From the IMG/VR virus record IMGVR_UViG_2529292829_000013: a stretch of DNA of 8,973 bases; one strand, given 5' to 3'. Both the position numbers and the translations under genes were made by a program. The stretch comes from a virus. Taxonomy: Duplodnaviria > Heunggongvirae > Uroviricota > Caudoviricetes. Below are positions 1-8,973 of the stretch, one piece after another; position 1 is the stretch's first letter; every line of letters begins with the position of its first letter. The notes under the pieces are model-generated. The model made no database searches. It was not told where the DNA came from and saw nothing but the letters and a program-made list of their open reading frames with translations.

Positions 1-291
1 CACACGGACCGTGGAGGCCAGTACTGTTCAGCAGATTATCAGGCGCAACTGAAGCGGCATAATCTGCGTGGAAGTATGAGCGCAAAAGGTTGCTGCTACG
101 ATAATGCCTGCGTGGAAAGCTTCTTTCATTCGCTGAAAGTGGAATGTATCCATGGAGAACACTTTATCAGCCGGGAAATAATGCGGGCAACGGTGTTTAA
201 TTATATCGAATGTGATTACAATCGGTGGCGGCGGCACAGTTGGTGTGGCGGCCTCAGTCCGGAACAATTTGAAAACAAGAACCTCGCTTAG
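1..291 (+). CDS. insF: IS3 transposase OrfB (InsF-type), C-terminal part; 5' end lies outside the window
   Basis: The frame is open from base 1 and translates [55 protein letters not shown]...[11 protein letters not shown], the DDE-transposase C-terminus of IS3 OrfB from memory. The ORF track reports only 76-291 because it starts at the first Met. Confidence 0.8.
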
Positions 292-331
292 GCCTGTGTC
301 CATATTACGTGGGTAGGATCATGCTGTCCTC
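1..331 (+). mobile_element. Right-hand portion of an IS3 element ending in its terminal inverted repeat; the window starts inside the element
   Basis: Bases 290-331 (ggcctgtgtccatattacgtgggtaggatca) match the IS3 right inverted repeat as I recall it (reverse complement TGATCCTACCCACGTAATATGGACACAGGCC); the transposase ORF stops at 289-291 just inside the end. Confidence 0.85.
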
Positions 332-379
332 ATTGAATACAATTTAAAAGATCTTTTTTCGTCAAATACAGATCATCTA

Positions 380-949
380 ATGATCGTAGATGTTGAGGAG
401 AAAACAGTTAATGATTTCTTTAAAAACTACACACTCTCACCTTTTTCTGTAAGAAGGTTTTATCCGTCATACTTGATAGTAGAATGTGAAGATTTTTCAT
501 TGTTAAGGAACTTGGTTGCATGCTTGAATTGTGATAGCAAAACCGTGGATGTAGTTAGAAATCAAATATCACTTGCATGTCTTGCTGTCTTATCTTCAGA
601 GAAAATAGTGCAAAGTTTTTTGTTCGGAAGTCTTAATAGCTTAGGTTGTAAAGTTAAGGCTATTATTCACTCGGATATCTCAGCGTCATGGAGACTTTGT
701 GATATATCTTCAAGATTATATATGAGCGAGAGTTTGTTAAAAAGAAAATTAAAAGACGAAGGATTATCGTTTAGTAAATTAATTCTTGAAGAACGAATGA
801 TGATGGCGCAAAGATTATTGATCTACAGTAACCATACTGTCGGCAAGGTGGCGGGAATATGCGGGTATGACAATGCATCATATTTTGTAAGTGTTTTTAG
901 AGGATATTTTGGTGTGCCTCCGCACCAATATTTATCAAGATTTTCTTAG
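380..949 (+). CDS. AraC/XylS-family transcriptional regulator (AppY/EnvY/GadX-like), apparently N-terminally truncated next to the IS3 end
   Basis: 189-aa ORF whose C-terminal ~90 aa look like an AraC double helix-turn-helix (LLKRKLKDEGLSFSKLILEERMMMAQRLL...GYDNASYFVSVFRGYFGVPPHQY). Family members are usually ~240-260 aa. The frame is open back only to 347, there is no Shine-Dalgarno before the ATG, and the IS3 end is at 331. Confidence 0.7.
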   Translation: MIVDVEEKTVNDFFKNYTLSPFSVRRFYPSYLIVECEDFSLLRNLVACLNCDSKTVDVVRNQISLACLAVLSSEKIVQSFLFGSLNSLGCKVKAIIHSDISASWRLCDISSRLYMSESLLKRKLKDEGLSFSKLILEERMMMAQRLLIYSNHTVGKVAGICGYDNASYFVSVFRGYFGVPPHQYLSRFS

Positions 950-1017
950 AAGATATGATGTGATGGCATTTTATAAAGTTATTTTTTGAAGTGTAAGATT
1001 ATACGATATTTTTAGCT

Positions 1018-1049
1018 ACGCCAGAATAATTGCTGGCGTTTTTCTTTTT
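1018..1049 (+). terminator. Rho-independent terminator (for the AraC-like gene, or a tR'-like late terminator upstream of the holin)
   Basis: Stem CGCCAG (1019-1024), 8-nt loop, CTGGCG (1033-1038), then T-run tttttcttttt (1039-1049). Confidence 0.6.
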
Positions 1050-1139
1050 GAATAGATGTTCGGGCCTTACGCTAATGTAACTTCTTTCCTTCTTCGAACC
1101 AAACCGTGTACACCATCCGTTATCTGCGGAGGTGAGGCT

Positions 1140-1355
1140 ATGAAATCCATGGATAAGTTAACAACGGGCATCGCCTACAGCACCTCTGCAGGCAGTGCTG
1201 GCTACTGGTTTTTACAGTTGCTCGATAAAGTCACGCCCTCACAGTGGGCGGCAATAGGTGTATTGGGTAGTCTGGTATTTGGCATGCTGACGTATCTGAC
1301 AAACCTTTATTTCAAGATTAAAGAAGACAGGCGTAAGGTTGCGAGAAGAGAGTAA
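1140..1355 (+). CDS. essQ: Phage-21-type pinholin (S21 / EssD/EssQ family), dual-start motif MKSMDK
   Basis: 71-aa product [71 protein letters not shown] with two transmembrane segments and a charged C-terminus; strong SD GGAGGTGAGG upstream; Met1 and Met4 mirror the S21 71/68 dual start. The ORF-track start at 1056 is an unsupported upstream extension. Confidence 0.85.
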
Positions 1356-1359
1356 TCCA

Positions 1360-1911
1360 ATGACTCAAGACTATGAACTGGTTGTGAAAGGAGTTCGCAA
1401 TTTTGAGAATAAAGTGGCGGTAACTGTAGCCTTACGGGACAAAAAACACTTTGACGGTGAAATTTTTGACCTGGACATCTCGCTGGACCGTGTTGAAGGT
1501 GCCGCGCTGGAGTTTTATGAGGCAGCAGCCAGAAGGAGCATCAGACAGGTCTTCCTGGATGTTGCTGCCGGGTTATGTGAAGGGGATGAGCAGTCGCCGG
1601 AAAAGCGCCCCATAATTTTAGAGGCGCAGAATGTGTGGATAACCTACAAAGGAAAGCTACCGGGAAGAATTACTGGTTCTCTGAAGACGCCACCGACGGC
1701 ATTGCGGTCAGAAAAAGATGATATTGAATCGCCCATTGAAAAACTGGAGGGCAGCGTCGCTGATCTGAATAAAAAATTGTCGGTGCTGATTCCTTCTGAA
1801 GATGAAAAAAAACGCCGCGATGAGCAGTTTGCGGCGTTTTACGATTATTGCATTGAAGTTACTCGCAGGAATTTTGTGAAGATTTTTGAGGAGGGTAAAT
1901 CTCTTCAGTAA
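1360..1911 (+). CDS. Hypothetical prophage protein; N-terminal part ydfR-like (DUF826-like), with a C-terminal extension of unknown function
   Basis: ATG at 1360 with SD-like agaagagag 7-8 nt upstream, 4 nt after the holin stop; 183 aa with coding-like codon usage throughout. My recollection is that the K-12 protein at this position (YdfR) is ~103 aa and begins MTQDYELVVKGVRNFENK; that recollection is unverified. Confidence 0.6.
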   Translation: MTQDYELVVKGVRNFENKVAVTVALRDKKHFDGEIFDLDISLDRVEGAALEFYEAAARRSIRQVFLDVAAGLCEGDEQSPEKRPIILEAQNVWITYKGKLPGRITGSLKTPPTALRSEKDDIESPIEKLEGSVADLNKKLSVLIPSEDEKKRRDEQFAAFYDYCIEVTRRNFVKIFEEGKSLQ

Positions 1912-2119
1912 GCTTATTGGCGGACGCTGCAATTAATTCAGGAAGGTCCGCAAGGTCATCTGTCAGTGGATATGATGAAAAATCGGCGGCAGTTCTGTTA
2001 AGAAGCGCTTTAACTAATTCCTTTTCCTTCTCCGGCAACAAGTTGATTAGAGCTACGACTGCTTGCCTGAGTGCGATTAAATCAGCAAAAGTTTGTTTAG
2101 GTAGATTTGTGTAATCCAT
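1859..2119 (-). CDS. Hypothetical 86-aa acidic protein, convergent with and overlapping the 3' end of the ydfR-like ORF
   Basis: ATG at 2117-2119 (minus) preceded by AGAGG 7 nt upstream; product MDYTNLPKQTFADLIALRQAVVALINLLPEKEKELVKALLNRTAADFSSYPLTDDLADLPELIAASANKLTEEIYPPQKSSQNSCE; I recognise no family. Confidence 0.45.
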   Translation of the reverse strand: MDYTNLPKQTFADLIALRQAVVALINLLPEKEKELVKALLNRTAADFSSYPLTDDLADLPELIAASANKLTEEIYPPQKSSQNSCE

Positions 2120-2232
2120 AGTCGCCTCTGTGTTTATCAGATTGACATCCTCCTCCCGCCAGTGCCCATCACTGGTGAGGTAAGATTTAACATATCCGGG
2201 GATTTGAAGCCGATAAATCCTGATAAATATCC

Positions 2233-3260
<1,028 letters not shown>

Positions 3261-3622
3261 ATTAATATTAAATCGGATTATTTTTAGCGCTGAATGTGAA
3301 ATTTAAATAAAAAGGACTCTTCCATGAGTCAAAATCCTTGAAATCTTAAGGGTAAGATAAAAGGTCATTAGACAGAATGACACGTTTTATTAATAAATAA
3401 AGCTATTGTTTCATTCGTGTGTTTTTCTTTACAAAAGTAATCCTTGCTATGGTTGGTTAATCATGCGTTAATGGTGTTCTGGTTTGTTACAAAATTATCT
3501 GAAGCAGTCATTGTTATAATTTTATTATTTGTACCTCTTGAGATTTCCTTGTTGGTTTTTCTCTCTGATATTTTTTTCGGACCATTCTGCCCAAGGGCTA
3601 ACTTCTTCAAAAGGTAATAATG
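3261..3622 (+). promoter_or_regulatory. AT-rich promoter and long 5' leader region of the cold-shock gene cspI
   Basis: ~360 bp AT-rich non-coding stretch with a TATAAT at 3516-3521; CspA-family genes characteristically have long structured 5' UTRs. Exact promoter elements are not resolved. Confidence 0.4.
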
Positions 3623-3835
3623 ATGTCTAACAAAATGACTGGTTTAGTGAAATGGTTTAACCCTGAAAAAGGTTTTGGTTTCATCACGCCGAAAGATGGT
3701 AGCAAAGATGTGTTTGTCCATTTCTCAGCTATTCAGAGCAACGATTTCAAAACGTTAACTGAGAATCAGGAAGTCGAATTTGGTATTGAGAACGGACCTA
3801 AAGGCCCCGCGGCTGTTCATGTTGTGGCACTTTGA
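3623..3835 (+). CDS. cspI: Cold-shock protein, CspA family (CspI)
   Basis: 70-aa product [70 protein letters not shown] with RNP1/RNP2 motifs (KGFGFI, VFVHF); the ORF track starts one codon earlier at 3620. Confidence 0.92.
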
Positions 3836-4034
3836 GGTAGAAAATATTACAAACCATATTCACTTTAGATGCCCGTGTTGCCATGGTTCTCAGTATAGAA
3901 CATCATCTTTTGATGTTTCTGACAGGAATCCTTTCGGGGCAAAATGTATCTTTTGTAAATCAATGATGATTACATTTGATAATATTTCACAATACTTAAA
4001 TGTTAGCCGTCTATCGTTAGATTTAAGAAAGTGA
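3819..4034 (+). CDS. Putative small zinc-ribbon protein (CPCC...CIFC), overlapping the 3' end of cspI in another frame; start uncertain
   Basis: ORF contains C-P-C-C, 21 residues, then C-I-F-C, a classic zinc-ribbon spacing; its stop at 4032-4034 is followed directly by a strong terminator. The only in-frame ATG (3819) lies inside cspI and has no good SD. Confidence 0.3.
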
Positions 4035-4039
4035 AAATG

Positions 4040-4062
4040 AAGGCTCCTTCGGGAGCTTTTTT
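4040..4062 (+). terminator. Rho-independent terminator with a UUCG tetraloop
   Basis: aaGGCTCC ttcg GGAGCtt followed by tttttt (4057-4062). Confidence 0.8.
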
Positions 4063-4180
4063 GCTTAGTGTCTAGTCGATGGATACTCACATATTACGGT
4101 AACATTATGAAAAAAATAATAGTTTTTTTAACTCTGAACCAGCAATGGTAGTGCCAGTGATGACCGGAGTTAACACCATC

Positions 4181-4336
4181 ATGCGTGAATATCCAAATGG
4201 CGAAACAACACACCTCACTGTAATGGCTGCAGGGTTTCCATCTCTGACCGGAGATCATAAAGTCATTTATGTAGCAGCGGATCGACATGTAACTTCAGAA
4301 GAAATTCTGGAAGCAGCAATGAGACTCTTGAATTGA
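4181..4336 (+). CDS. ynfN: YnfN-like small prophage protein (51 aa)
   Basis: MREYPNGETTHLTVMAAGFPSLTGDHKVIYVAADRHVTSEEILEAAMRLLN; the length and position (between cspI and the gns gene) match what I recall for Qin ynfN; the sequence itself is not recalled. The ORF-track start at 4145 has no RBS support. Confidence 0.5.
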   Translation: MREYPNGETTHLTVMAAGFPSLTGDHKVIYVAADRHVTSEEILEAAMRLLN

Positions 4337-4508
4337 TTTGATTCTAATGCATTGATAATAAATGATAATCATCTTTATCTGTTTGTGTGAAATTTAGACC
4401 GTCGTATGTTGATTATTGCGATGTTTCATCTTATCTTTTATACGTTTGCTCCATATAATTGACACTACTGTGTACCAGGAAAGTCATAACAGACTAAAAG
4501 AGGAAATG

Positions 4509-4682
4509 ATGAACATTGAAGAGTTAAAAACAAAAACAGAAGCAGATATTTCTGAATATATAACAAAAAAAATCATTGAGCTTAAGAAAAAGACCGGGAA
4601 AGAAGTTACCAGTATCCAGTTTACTGCACGGGAAAAAATGACTGGTCTTGAAAGCTATGATATCAAGATTGATTTAATCTAG
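4509..4682 (+). CDS. gnsB: GnsA/GnsB-family protein (57 aa)
   Basis: MNIEELKTKTEADISEYITKKIIELKKKTGKEVTSIQFTAREKMTGLESYDIKIDLI; strong SD aaGAGGAa upstream; resembles GnsA/GnsB (MNIEELK...TGKEV...FTAREKMTGLESYD) but appears diverged from the K-12 sequence as I recall it. Confidence 0.75.
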   Translation: MNIEELKTKTEADISEYITKKIIELKKKTGKEVTSIQFTAREKMTGLESYDIKIDLI

Positions 4683-4743
4683 TCTGTTTAGTATTAGCAT
4701 CAATTTCTCATCAGATGCTATTCAACAATACAAATTACCCATA

Positions 4744-4770
4744 AACCTCGTTTTTACGGGGTTTTGTTAT
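4744..4770 (+). terminator. Probable rho-independent terminator downstream of the gns gene
   Basis: AACCTCG (4744-4750), loop ttttta, CGGGGTT (4757-4763, one G-U pair), then a T-rich run ttttgttat. Confidence 0.5.
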
Positions 4771-4975
4771 ATTTAAACATTACCGAATAGGTATAAATCT
4801 CGATTGTCGATGGTATTGGTTGTGTGACAATACCTAGTCTTTCCGGTATGCCTGATGAGAATACAAACGACAGATTATGTAAGGGAAACGCGCTGAATCT
4901 TTAACTCTTTCATGCTGAGTGATTTGACGTTATATTTTTAGCCGTAAGTGAAGAGCAAACGCATGGAGCGACAAA

Positions 4976-5182
4976 ATGCATAAAGATCAATACACTGATG
5001 CCCCCTCCCAGGAGCAGGTTCGTGTAAAAACTATGCTTAATAGCACCATTTCGATGGGTTACCCGGATGTTGTAATTGCATGTATAGAACATCAAGTGTC
5101 TCTGGAAGCATTCAGGGCAATTGAGGCCGCGTTAGTAAAGCACGATAAGAATACGAAGGATTATTCCCTGGTGGTTGACTGA
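4976..5182 (+). CDS. Hypothetical 68-aa protein
   Basis: ATG at 4976 with GGAG 7 nt upstream; product [68 protein letters not shown]; no family recognised. Confidence 0.45.
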
Positions 5183-5530
5183 TCACCATAACTGCTAACC
5201 ATTCTGACCATTTCACAAGTGACAGAGTCAATATCGTATTCTGTCACTGTCAGGCTAATACAGCAATGCAATTCAACTACAGCAATGCCTCGTATTTAGG
5301 TGAATTTACAATATCGTCCAGTTCGGATGCCGGCTGCATTTCTGAAGATAAGGCATTTCGGTTCTCGTATTTTCCCCTCATGCTCGTCAGTCCTGCGCGT
5401 AGTAAGAAACAGGACACTCACACTAATTTGTGTGGGCATGCTGTGATGTCCTTCTGAATTATCCCCATGCCATTATGTAAAGCTCTGTTACAGATGCTCG
5501 TCACGGTTGTCAGGCTGTCGGGTCCTCCCA

Positions 5531-5570
5531 GTGGGGGGCCCTGCCACGGGGCGGGAGCGTCGCGGAAAAA
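5531..5570 (+). other. Lambda-like cohesive-end site (cosN-like core), with a probable cosB region extending to the Nu1-like start
   Basis: cacggggcgggagcgtcgcgg (5545-5565) resembles the lambda cosN region ACGGGGCGGCGACCTCGCGGG; it sits ~185 bp upstream of the Nu1-like ATG at 5735, matching lambda's cos-to-Nu1 spacing. Confidence 0.5.
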
Positions 5571-5734
5571 GGCTAGTTTTTGAAATTTCATCCGTCATCA
5601 CCACTACTGTAATAGATTGATATTAAAGTATTTTTATTTTTGTGGTGTCGATTTTGATTGTTTTTTGTTCATCACTAACACCGTTTGCCTAAAGTCGTTC
5701 GCAAGATGCATGTTTAAAACATTCTGGAGCGGGT

Positions 5735-5980
5735 ATGGATCGAGAGTTAAAAAATCTGACGCTGAATATCAGTCAACTGGCGGCACTGTCAGGTGTACAT
5801 CGCCAGACTGCTGCGGCAAGGCTGCAAAATCTACCCGTTGCAGGGGGGCATGAAAGCAACCTCAAGCTTTATCGGGTGGTTGATATTGTGTCGGCATTTC
5901 TGGCATTACCACCGCCGGTTGCAGAAGGCGAAATGGACGCGCATGAGCGCAAAGCCTGGTACCTTCTGCCCGTAAGGTGA
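5735..5980 (+). pseudogene. nohQ: Terminase small subunit (Nu1 homolog, NohQ/NohA-like), C-terminally truncated fragment
   Basis: N-terminal HTH region (NISQLAALSGVHRQTAAARLQNLPVAGGHESNLKLYRVV) parallels lambda Nu1; the ORF stops after 81 aa (Nu1 is ~180 aa) and the tail-fibre frame begins at the same point. Confidence 0.7.
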
Positions 5981-7160
5981 ATGGTAAGGCGCTTTCAGCT
6001 GATATAACACTGACGCCGAAAGATATTGGTACGCTTAACTCAACAACAATGTCATTCAGCGGTGGTGCTGGTTGGTTCAAATTAGCAACGGTAACCATGC
6101 CACAGGCGAGTTCTGTTGTTTCAATTACGTTGATTGGTGGCGCGGGATTTAACGTGGGGTCACCTCAACAGGCAGGTATATCTGAACTTGTTTTGCGTGC
6201 AGGTAATGGTAATCCGAAGGGGATTACTGGTGCTTTATGGCAGCGCACATCGACAGGGTTTACAAATTTTGCCTGGGTCAATACATCTGGTGATACTTAC
6301 GATATTTACGTTGCAATCGGAAATTATGCGACTGGTGTAAATATTCAATGGGATTATACCAGTAATGCCAGCGTGACGATTCATACGTCACCAGCATATT
6401 CTGCTAATAAGCCGGAAGGGTTAACGGACGGTACAGTTTATTCACTCTATACGCCATCAGAGCAGTTTTATCCGCCTGGCGCACCAATCCCGTGGCCATC
6501 AGATACCGTTCCGTCTGGCTATGCCCTGATGCAGGGGCAGACTTTTGACAAATCTGCCTACCCGAAACTTGCAGCCGCTTATCCGTCAGGCGTGATCCCT
6601 GATATGCGTGGCTGGACGATTAAGGGCAAACCTGCCAGTGGTCGTGCCGTATTGTCTCAGGAACAGGACGGCATTAAATCGCACACCCACAGCGCCAGCG
6701 CATCCAGTACGGATTTGGGGACGAAAAACACATCGTCGTTTGATTACGGAACCAAATCCACGAATAACACCGGGGCGCATACCCATAGTATTAGCGGGAC
6801 TGCAAATAGTGCCGGTGCGCACCAACACAAGAGTTCCGGTGCATTTGGTGGCACGAACACGAGCATTTTCCCTAATGGTTATACCGCGATTTCAAATCTA
6901 AGCGCGGGGATTATGAGCACAACAAGCGGTAGTGGCCAGACTCGTAATGCAGGGAAGACATCATCAGATGGTGCTCATACCCACTCGCTGTCCGGCACTG
7001 CTGCAAGCGCAGGCGCACATGCACATACTGTCGTATTGGTGCTCATACGCACTCCGTTGCGATTGGCTCACATGGACACACCATCACCGTTAACGCTGCT
7101 GGTAACGCGGAAAACACCGTCAAAAACATCGCATTTAACTATATTGTGAGGCTTGCATAA
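5977..7160 (+). pseudogene. stfQ: Side tail fibre protein, C-terminal portion only (StfQ/StfR-like), with a 1-nt frameshift near 7033
   Basis: No ATG start; the frame opens at 5947 inside the nohQ fragment. The product has His-rich GAHTHS-type repeats typical of Stf C-termini. After ...SAGAHAHTV the listed frame gives [15 protein letters not shown]..., while the other frame from 7035 gives [42 protein letters not shown] and ends at TAA 7158-7160, overlapping the tfa ATG. Confidence 0.75.
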
Positions 7161-7735
7161 TGGCATTCAGAATGAGTGAACAACCACGGACCATAAAAAT
7201 TTATAATCTGCTGGCCGGAACTAATGAATTTATTGGTGAAGGTGACGCATATATTCCGCCTCATACAGGTCTGCCAGCAAACAGTACCGATATTGCACCG
7301 CCAGATATTCCGGCAGGCTTCGTGGCTGTTTTCAACAGTGATGAGGCATCGTGGCATCTCGTTGAAGATCATCGGGGTAAAACCGTCTATGACGTGGCTT
7401 CCGGCGACGCGTTATTTATTTCTGAACTCGGTCCGTTACCGGAAAATGTTACCTGGTTATCGCCGGAAGGGGAGTTTCAGAAGTGGAACGGCACAGCCTG
7501 GGTGAAGGATACGGAAGCAGAAAAACTGTTCCGGATCCGGGAGGCGGAAGAAACAAAAAACAACCTGATGCAGGTAGCCAGTGAGCATATTGCGCCGCTT
7601 CAGGATGCTGCAGATCTGGAAATTGCAACGGAGGAAGAAATCTCGTTGCTGGAAGCATGGAAAAAGTATCGGGTATTGCTGAACCGTGTTGATACGTCAA
7701 CTTCACAGGATATTGAATGGCCAGCACTGCCGTAG
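7160..7735 (+). CDS. tfaQ: Tail fibre assembly protein (Tfa)
   Basis: 191 aa, [39 protein letters not shown]...; GAGG 8 nt upstream; sits immediately downstream of stf as in lambdoid stf-tfa pairs. Confidence 0.9.
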
Positions 7736-7832
7736 GGTAAAACATATAAATTCTATAATTAGATGTATCTTTCCATTTACGGCAAGGAAGGGGGCTTGGA
7801 AGACGTAAAGCATCTCACACCGAGATTATTTT

Positions 7833-8423
7833 TTATATGTCAGGTGTCTGAAGTTTTGCTTTGGCTCTTAAAATGGTTTGCCGCGAGGTTTTGAATTCCC
7901 GGGCAATGGCACTTATACTTACACCTGACTTAATTCGTTCGAATACCACCTGTTTCTGTTCTTCATTTAACACAGGTGGTCGACCAAAACGTTTCCCTGC
8001 GCCGCGGGCTCTTACTATCCCGGAATGAGTGCGTTCAAGTAAAAGGTCTCGTTCAAATTCAGCGACTGCTGAAATTACTTGCATCATCATTTTTCCTGTT
8101 GGACTGGTCAGGTCAATGCCACCCAATGCCAAGCAATGCACTCTGATACCTGTTTCGGTCAGTTGTTCCACTGTTTTCCTGATATCCATTGCATTACAAC
8201 CAAGGCGATCCAGTTTTGTCACAATCAATTGATCACCACATTTCAGGCGAGCAAGCAACCGGTTAAAACCAGGACGCTCACTGGTTGCTGCTGAGCCGCT
8301 AATGTGTTCTTCGATTATTTGCTGAGGTTTGATTTTAAAACCTGCACTTTCGATTTCCCGGCGTTGATTTTCGGTGGTCTGATCCAGCGTTGATATCCGA
8401 CAGTAAGCAAAAATTTGAGACAT
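7833..8423 (-). CDS. pinQ: Serine recombinase / DNA invertase of the Pin/Gin/Hin family
   Basis: 196 aa, [31 protein letters not shown]... with the catalytic Ser motif (YCRIST) and a C-terminal HTH ([18 protein letters not shown]). Confidence 0.9.
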
Positions 8424-8739
8424 AGTGAGACTCTATACGAAATTGGTGTTCATATCATAATGCATCTCAGAAAATAATTATGATTATTTTTGTGCATATT
8501 TGTATGTACACGTTCGAAAATAAACGAATGCGTATGCAACCCCGTAATTTTGGTGAGACCCAAAATCGATTTTGTGAAAAATGGCTTTAACTCGGTTTGT
8601 TTTTCGAGTTCCGGGCGGACTCAAGGAAGAAGAATAGTGTTGCGTGTTATTTTAACCAGATTTCAAGTTGTTTGGACGTGGAAAAGTGGAGCAAAATGTT
8701 GTTGAAGTGGAAAAATGATAAAAAAGTAAGTTTATTATA

Positions 8740-8973
8740 TTACATTTTACCATTTAAATTTTGGTTGTCTTTAAGAACTGATATCGCTGTTTGTAATAAT
8801 TCTTTGTTATCCAGCCATGATTTTTTCTTTATGTTTCCTTCAATGTAATCAAGCAATGTTCTGGTATTAATAGGTCTTCCCTGTTTTGCTACTTCCACTA
8901 CAGCATCCCCTAGGATAATTCTTACTTCAGGAAGCTGCGCAGGGAACCACTTTAGGGTGTCTTTTGATTTCAT
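8740..8973 (-). CDS. ydfK: YdfK/YnaE-family small prophage protein (cold-shock-associated); start codon is the last three bases of the window
   Basis: 77 aa, MKSKDTLKWFPAQLPEVRIILGDAVVEVAKQGRPINTRTLLDYIEGNIKKKSWLDNKELLQTAISVLKDNQNLNGKM. Confidence 0.85.
   Translation of the reverse strand: MKSKDTLKWFPAQLPEVRIILGDAVVEVAKQGRPINTRTLLDYIEGNIKKKSWLDNKELLQTAISVLKDNQNLNGKM

Follow-up and report, generated by a model that had tools for sequence, protein, structure and literature searches.

A singleton one-nucleotide frameshift in a truncated side tail fibre remnant of a Qin-type cryptic prophage of Escherichia coli

The window, by which we mean the whole 8,973-nt stretch of DNA analysed here, comprises the first 8973 nt of draft contig AQDU01000095.1 (GCA_000355575.2) of E. 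coli 2785200, and its closest complete genomes match it at 99.8–99.9% identity. According to the annotation of these genomes, it carries, in order, IS3, an HTH stump, essQ, ydfR (pseudogene), rrrQ, rzpQ, cspI, ynfQ/ymcF, ynfN, gnsB, nohA' (pseudogene), 'stf (pseudogene), tfaQ, pinQ, and ydfK. This arrangement, which is devoid of morphogenesis genes, is that of the K-12 Qin prophage (essQ-ydfR-rrrQ-rzpQ-cspI-ynfQ-ynfN-gnsB-...-nohA-stf-tfa-pin-ydfK), and no head or tail genes were found in the window's prophage. The window is a Qin-type cryptic prophage, and the features that concern us lie in its right-hand part:

5735–5980, + strand: nohA'/DUF1441 stump, N-terminus of a Nu1-like packaging protein, 76–81 codons, frame 2
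5947–7160, + strand: 5'-truncated side tail fibre remnant 'stf, StfQ-like, body in frame 1 to 7033, native end in frame 3 from 7034
7033–7034, + strand: site of the 1-nt deletion, GTC GGT ATT to GTC GT ATT, a GG pair minus one G
7033–7149, + strand: out-of-frame tail of 38 unrelated residues (VLVLIRTPL...HLTIL), then TGA at 7147–7149
7034–7160, + strand: native, now unread stf 3' end in frame 3, with the last two HxH motifs and TAA at 7158–7160
7148–7151, + strand: GAGG, putative Shine-Dalgarno-like core of tfa (function inferred), 8 nt before its ATG and overlapped by the new TGA
7160–7735, + strand: tfa, TfaQ/TfaR-type tail fibre assembly protein, 191 aa, intact (PF02413, E 2.2e-42)
7833–8423, - strand: pin, Pin/Gin-type serine invertase, 196 aa, intact (PF00239 and PF02796)
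8740–8973, - strand: ydfK/ynaE-type small cold-shock gene near the prophage right end

The closest known module is StfQ/TfaQ/PinQ of K-12 Qin (b1547-b1545), with its paralogue StfR/TfaR/PinR in Rac. StfQ of K-12, at 320 aa, is likewise N-terminally truncated; over its C-terminal ~230 residues it agrees almost completely with the window protein once repaired, and it shares the TAATG overlap with tfaQ. The window differs from K-12 Qin in its nohA–stf junction, which leaves ~405 stf codons and a shorter nohA stump, in the absence of ydfO and ynfO, and in the extra 1-nt deletion, where K-12 reads GTCGGTATT. It also differs in the right flank of the source contig: the ydfJ-ydfI-...-dcp chromosomal flank of Qin is absent, and the contig instead runs into ynaM-uspF-ompN-ydbK, the K-12 Rac locus, whereas the closest complete genome retains the Qin flank (ynfT-ydfJ-ydfI-...-dcp). 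When the contig is compared site by site, Qin-type sequence is seen to give way to Rac-type sequence somewhere in contig positions 8869–9427. A 2.5-kb repeat common to Rac- and Qin-type prophages occupies contig positions 6970–9517, and the deletion lies 63 nt inside it. The join of a Qin left side to a Rac right side may have arisen in the strain by Rac x Qin recombination, perhaps through an inversion spanning the terminus region, or may be a chimera of short-read assembly.

Two further observations concern the left part of this prophage. The end of an IS3-family transposase gene (1–291) abuts an AraC-type HTH gene (323–949) that has no N-terminus. In K-12 Qin the region beyond essQ holds the late-control genes cspB/cspF/quuQ, so the remnant seems to lack the region of the late-gene antiterminator. 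Separately, ynfN (4107–4336) is 1 nt shorter in the window and in E. coli KFu015, where PGAP labels it 'frameshifted', and is intact in 027_SK3. It is the second place in this prophage at which a small frameshift is polymorphic.

Turning to the fibre gene, the preliminary description had treated the lesion as one that inactivates an intact tail fibre gene, a premise that the locus does not bear out, as the open reading frame is the 3' part of stf and ~540 N-terminal codons were lost earlier. Homology to full-length stf (926 aa) begins only at 5958, at about codon 544, and the ~405 remaining 3' codons are joined out of frame to the nohA/DUF1441 stump. The stump itself matches Pfam PF07278 (E 3.3e-13) over profile positions 1–72 of 147, and PGAP describes the same stretch in KFu015 as 'DUF1441 family protein, incomplete, missing C-terminus'; it is the left edge of an old internal prophage deletion. 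Full-length neighbours of 926–1117 aa carry the tail-attachment domain PF08400 (phage_tail_N). This domain is absent from the window ORF, in which only Collar (PF07484) and Phage_fiber (PF03335) were detected, so that both the N-terminal attachment domain and the shaft of Stf/gp37-type fibres are missing. At the equivalent place in KFu015 and 027_SK3, PGAP annotates a pseudogene, 'phage tail protein, missing N-terminus'. With its N-terminus gone, an out-of-frame nohA stump in front of it, and no PF08400, stf was thus reduced to a dead 3' fragment before it acquired the frameshift. The 3' frame is still open in at least six complete genomes that share the nohA–stf junction, and in the six closest of these PGAP nevertheless labels the gene a pseudogene without its N-terminus; the proteins P0005, P0011, and P0015 (394–405 aa) likewise have an intact 3' frame.

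Within this fragment, direct reading of the sequence gives GTCGTATT at 7030–7037, and positions 7021–7044 read GCA CAT ACT GTC GTA TTG GTG CTC in frame 1. The long open reading frame (5977–7149) uses this frame, and the missing base at 7030–7037 therefore takes it into 38 unrelated residues and to the stop TGA at 7147–7149. Frame 3, read from 7032, is closed by TAA at 7158–7160, the final A of which is shared with the tfa ATG (7160–7162). Inserting one G after 7033 yields an uninterrupted product of 394 aa. The deletion is placed at 7033/7034 because the remaining G is 7033. The preliminary description had put the replaced C-terminus at about 41 residues; the replacement itself stands, and its exact extent is corrected here to 42 native residues exchanged for 38 out-of-frame ones, with a drop in HxH motifs from seven to five.

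Comparison with intact alleles bears out a 1-nt deletion in the tail fibre gene, as natural alleles carry GTCGGTATT and the window has one G fewer. Over 361 nt (6880–7240), the window aligns to SE11, 19SZHZ803Rt, and five more complete E. coli genomes with a single 1-nt gap and is otherwise identical. In the two of these alleles that were fetched, those of SE11 and 19SZHZ803Rt, the extra base is G, giving GTCGGTATT; StfQ of K-12 carries the same sequence and runs in a single frame to its native end. Twelve related loci read GTC/GTG-GGT-ATT or GTC-AGT-ATT at the site, all with the native ending and TAATG. A broader set of 253 copies (239 with a complete tail), fetched from viral and metagenome contigs, has G at the deleted position in 247 and A in six, in line with the earlier suggestion that G is the most likely missing base. 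The earlier proposal that the native C-terminus lies in the other frame likewise holds, since the frame-3 peptide of the window is the identical C-terminus in 227 of the 239 complete tails and aligns to gp37 through its last residue; TAATG, which terminates 233 of the 239, belongs to frame 3 only, as had been claimed. Agreement of this extent goes far beyond chance, and loss of one G from the GG pair of GTCGGTATT is the most parsimonious event.

The closest genomes over the whole window, KFu015 and 027_SK3, carry the minority AGT codon at the site (GTCAGTATT). Ten of the 12 substitutions between KFu015 and the window cluster in 6558–8599, from the stf 3' end to just upstream of pin, and at most of the substituted sites in this interval it is KFu015, not the window, that is the odd one out. 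This pattern suggests a gene-conversion patch or private changes of the KFu015 lineage, including the AGT codon at the frameshift site.

The deletion allele is a singleton. None of 5426 complete E. coli genomes contains a 46-mer that crosses the deletion site, whereas the repaired 47-mer, with the G restored, occurs at 4548 places in 3038 of them; the 46-mer is also without a match in 50,697 phage records and in 72,556 plasmids. At contig level, a 25-nt deletion pattern gave 0 matches in each of three collections (metagenome contigs, viral contigs, and contigs of GTDB genomes), and the intact 25-nt pattern gave at least 120 in the metagenome contigs and at least 120 in the viral contigs. The exact frameshifted product of 390 aa, EMW36073.1, is found in one contig only across indexed assemblies holding 153 billion gene positions, and no length variants at the site occur among the 253 fetched copies.

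The preliminary description had also considered that homologues might share the out-of-frame C-terminus, in which case it would be native. Beyond the window's own protein, no such fibre homologue was found. A search with the out-of-frame ending among 5.8 billion cluster representatives recovered only ORFs of 31–70 aa; these are without a fibre body and represent either intact alleles called in another frame or deletion fusions. Since this search covers representatives only, and the cluster to which the window's own protein belongs is represented by an intact one, more weight falls on the searches at the DNA level and on the look-up of the exact protein. The deletion fusions form an observation of their own, as three independent prophage remnants have the right junctions of large deletions within ~12 nt of GGTATTGGTGCTCAT, equivalent to about 7033–7047 of the window:

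Locus L256, 3001–3168: deletion fusion, junction at about window 7033–7047
Locus L259, 3001–3213: deletion fusion, junction at about window 7033–7047
Locus L260, 3001–3195: deletion fusion, junction at about window 7033–7047

The left partners of the three fusions are the nohA/DUF1441 N-terminus (11 contigs), a lambda-P-like replication gene, and minor tail gene Z, and all three retain the last ~42 stf codons together with an intact tfa.

To place the replaced residues in a structure, residues 151–394 of the repaired protein align to the last residue with the T4 gp37 needle (PDB 2XGF, E 3.8e-83). With the G restored, the ORF carries the C-terminal needle of Stf/gp37-type fibres; as read, it does not, having five HxH motifs and its last 42 residues replaced. 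We take position i of the 2XGF chain to be gp37 residue 784+i, the chain of 242 residues thus representing 785–1026; under this numbering the first replaced residue corresponds to gp37 985 and the replaced span to about 985–1026. In gp37, the collar domain D10 comprises 811–881 and 1010–1026, the stem-tip domain D11 comprises 882–1009, seven iron ions are held by His residues along the needle, and the receptor-contact residues that have been studied lie at ~933–953 (PMC6957217). The equivalence to 985–1026 therefore identifies what is lost: the strand by which the stem descends, which bears two HxH motifs, and the final strand of the collar. The repaired protein resembles gp37 in its collar domain, in seven HxH motifs that correspond to the seven iron sites, and in an identical ending; it differs in a middle tip segment of another, longer type and in lacking the N-terminal fibre shaft, and in the window as read the equivalents of 985–1026 are replaced by unrelated residues. 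The lost span is the invariant folding core, with the variable receptor-contact tip lying upstream and unchanged, and the lesion would prevent folding of the trimeric needle rather than vary the tip. The earlier idea that the receptor-binding tip is altered does not fit this placement, as the replaced residues form the invariant return strand of the stem, on which the last two HxH motifs lie, and the last strand of the collar.

The effect on tfa is predicted to be slight. The exact tfa protein is found in 126 blocks of an assembly collection, and TAATG is still present in the DNA. The new TGA lies 10 nt before the tfa ATG. In bacterial translation, a close upstream stop combined with a gene's own Shine-Dalgarno sequence generally still allows reinitiation or independent initiation, and tfa would be expected to be translated by one or the other despite the frameshift. 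The preliminary description had held that stop–start coupling to tfa is broken: the overlap is indeed lost in the frame that is read, but uncoupling as such was overstated, because the TGA is only 10 nt before the ATG and tfa has its own GAGG.

What could have produced the deletion? The sequence comparisons establish the deletion, its uniqueness, the earlier truncation, and the homology. We infer that the fragment is not expressed, that the change is neutral, and that it is a true mutation, and on this footing the most probable account is neutral decay of an stf fragment that was already dead. An old internal deletion took out every head and tail gene as well as the first ~540 stf codons and fused the rest out of frame to the nohA stump. 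Because neither a virion nor an anchored fibre can be made, the stf fragment would be free of selection, and the later loss of one G of GTCGGTATT at 7033/7034 would amount to neutral decay. If translated, the product would have only the first five of its seven iron-binding HxH motifs and no final collar strand, the missing elements being needed for needle folding, and the downstream tfa would be left intact with its own ribosome-binding site. A real mutation at 7033/7034 is plausible, as the site is a GG dinucleotide and no long homopolymer, no other indel separates the sequence from KFu015 over 9.5 kb or from independent Rac-locus assemblies over 8.7 kb, and the core genes nearby, uspF, ompN, and ydbK, are of normal length. 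The same three facts weigh against the less likely, yet still serious, reading that the strain truly carries GTCGGTATT and that the draft consensus dropped one G in sequencing or assembly, as does the consideration that an unselected pseudogene is where true private indels are expected. That reading draws on the appearance of the allele solely in one draft contig from 2013, on the identity of the rest of 6880–7240 to natural alleles, and on the location of the site 63 nt within a 2.5-kb near-identical repeat present at two prophage loci, which is error-prone for short reads. The junction of a Qin-type left side with a Rac-locus right flank, possibly chimeric, also speaks for it, but the switch at 8869–9427 is ~2 kb away, so the deletion is not at the contig join. 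As a specific mechanism, an artefact at a mosaic or chimera boundary was rejected, given the position of that switch and the status of A at the site as a minority state of the KFu015 lineage; a generic assembly error is possible. Pseudogenisation and assembly error, both offered by the preliminary description, are thus still live, with the former favoured as a real mutation in a dead fragment.

The third option offered there, slippage-based variation, does not survive, the site being a mere GG dinucleotide without a slippery heptamer and the allele occurring once among thousands of copies. Slipped-strand phase variation, or programmed ribosomal or transcriptional frameshifting, would toggle the fibre C-terminus, and the other frame is open to the native stop, though this is expected after any recent frameshift. 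There is no simple-sequence tract and no X XXY YYZ heptamer in 6990–7060, and the nearest run of at least four identical bases is at 7111, with none within 75 nt; with neither repeat tract nor slippery site, slippage and programmed frameshifting are rejected. Moreover, no length change was seen in the 253 fetched copies or at the 4548 genomic places, so that the length polymorphism among strains that marks contingency loci is absent, as is the conserved two-frame arrangement of programmed frameshifting, every intact homologue encoding the ending in one frame. The affected region is invariant structural core, not variable tip, and in an stf without its N-terminal half there is nothing functional for frameshifting to regulate; we regard this mechanism as having a negligible chance of being correct. 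The three fusions described above might instead mark the site as a local breakage and repair hotspot in lambdoid prophages, with the 1-nt loss as a scar left by repair in the same process. They come, however, from a search seeded with a peptide starting at the site and thus biased towards it, and two further fusions from that search end 9–12 codons away. Microhomology accounts for two of the junctions, GGTA and TGGTGyTCAT (the latter deduced from protein, not from an intact DNA allele), a rough post-hoc estimate puts the clustering only at p~0.05, and the site shows neither invertase-crossover or Chi resemblance nor an inverted repeat. An origin of the deletion as such a scar is accordingly most improbable, and it is very unlikely that GGTATTGGTGCTCAT, ~125 nt upstream of tfa, is a preferred lambdoid breakpoint through site-specific cleavage, replication stalling, or selection that keeps the last ~42 stf codons with tfa.

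The adjacent invertase gene does not provide a switching context for the fibre. It lies ~97 nt from the end of tfa, and the window holds no second fibre/tfa cassette. Searches for inverted repeats gave only weak ones of 14–20 nt with 80–86% complementarity. The locus therefore contains an invertase (PF00239) and lacks the arrangement of invertase-switched cassettes such as the Mu G, P1 C, and e14 P segments; in the absence of an alternative cassette and of convincing crossover repeats, pin is without an evident substrate in the window. An invertase crossover site at the frameshift itself was considered and rejected, as no inverted repeat partner was found. The frameshift site also bears no resemblance to what we take to be the hix/gix-type consensus.

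A likeness is offered by lambda PaPa, in which the gene hit by a frameshift is again a lambdoid one for side tail fibres, with tfa downstream. That lesion reportedly lies mid-gene in an otherwise complete, functional phage, with absence of side fibres as the phenotype, whereas the lesion in the window affects the last 42 codons of a mere fragment, and the prophage that carries it is unable to make particles. As summarised in PMC3945230, which cites Hendrix & Duda 1992 (its ref. 40), the PaPa frameshift (orf-401/orf-314) inactivates the side fibre gene, and this loss is tolerated. The frameshift described here is an extra lesion, or a sequence error, in a cryptic prophage whose fibre gene had been cut down to a fragment beforehand; lesions of this kind are known, and no new type of feature is involved.

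The biological weight of the finding is very small, as it reflects routine gene decay or a draft-assembly error. For sequence collections, the entry named 'phage tail fiber repeat family protein' (EMW36073.1) translates a pseudogene that has been damaged twice and is unfit for use as a fibre sequence. The stf–tfa regions of cryptic Qin and Rac prophages are known donors in recombination with infecting lambdoid phages (PMC3945230); if the lesion is real, it could therefore pass to a recombining phage and knock out the side fibres of the recipient.
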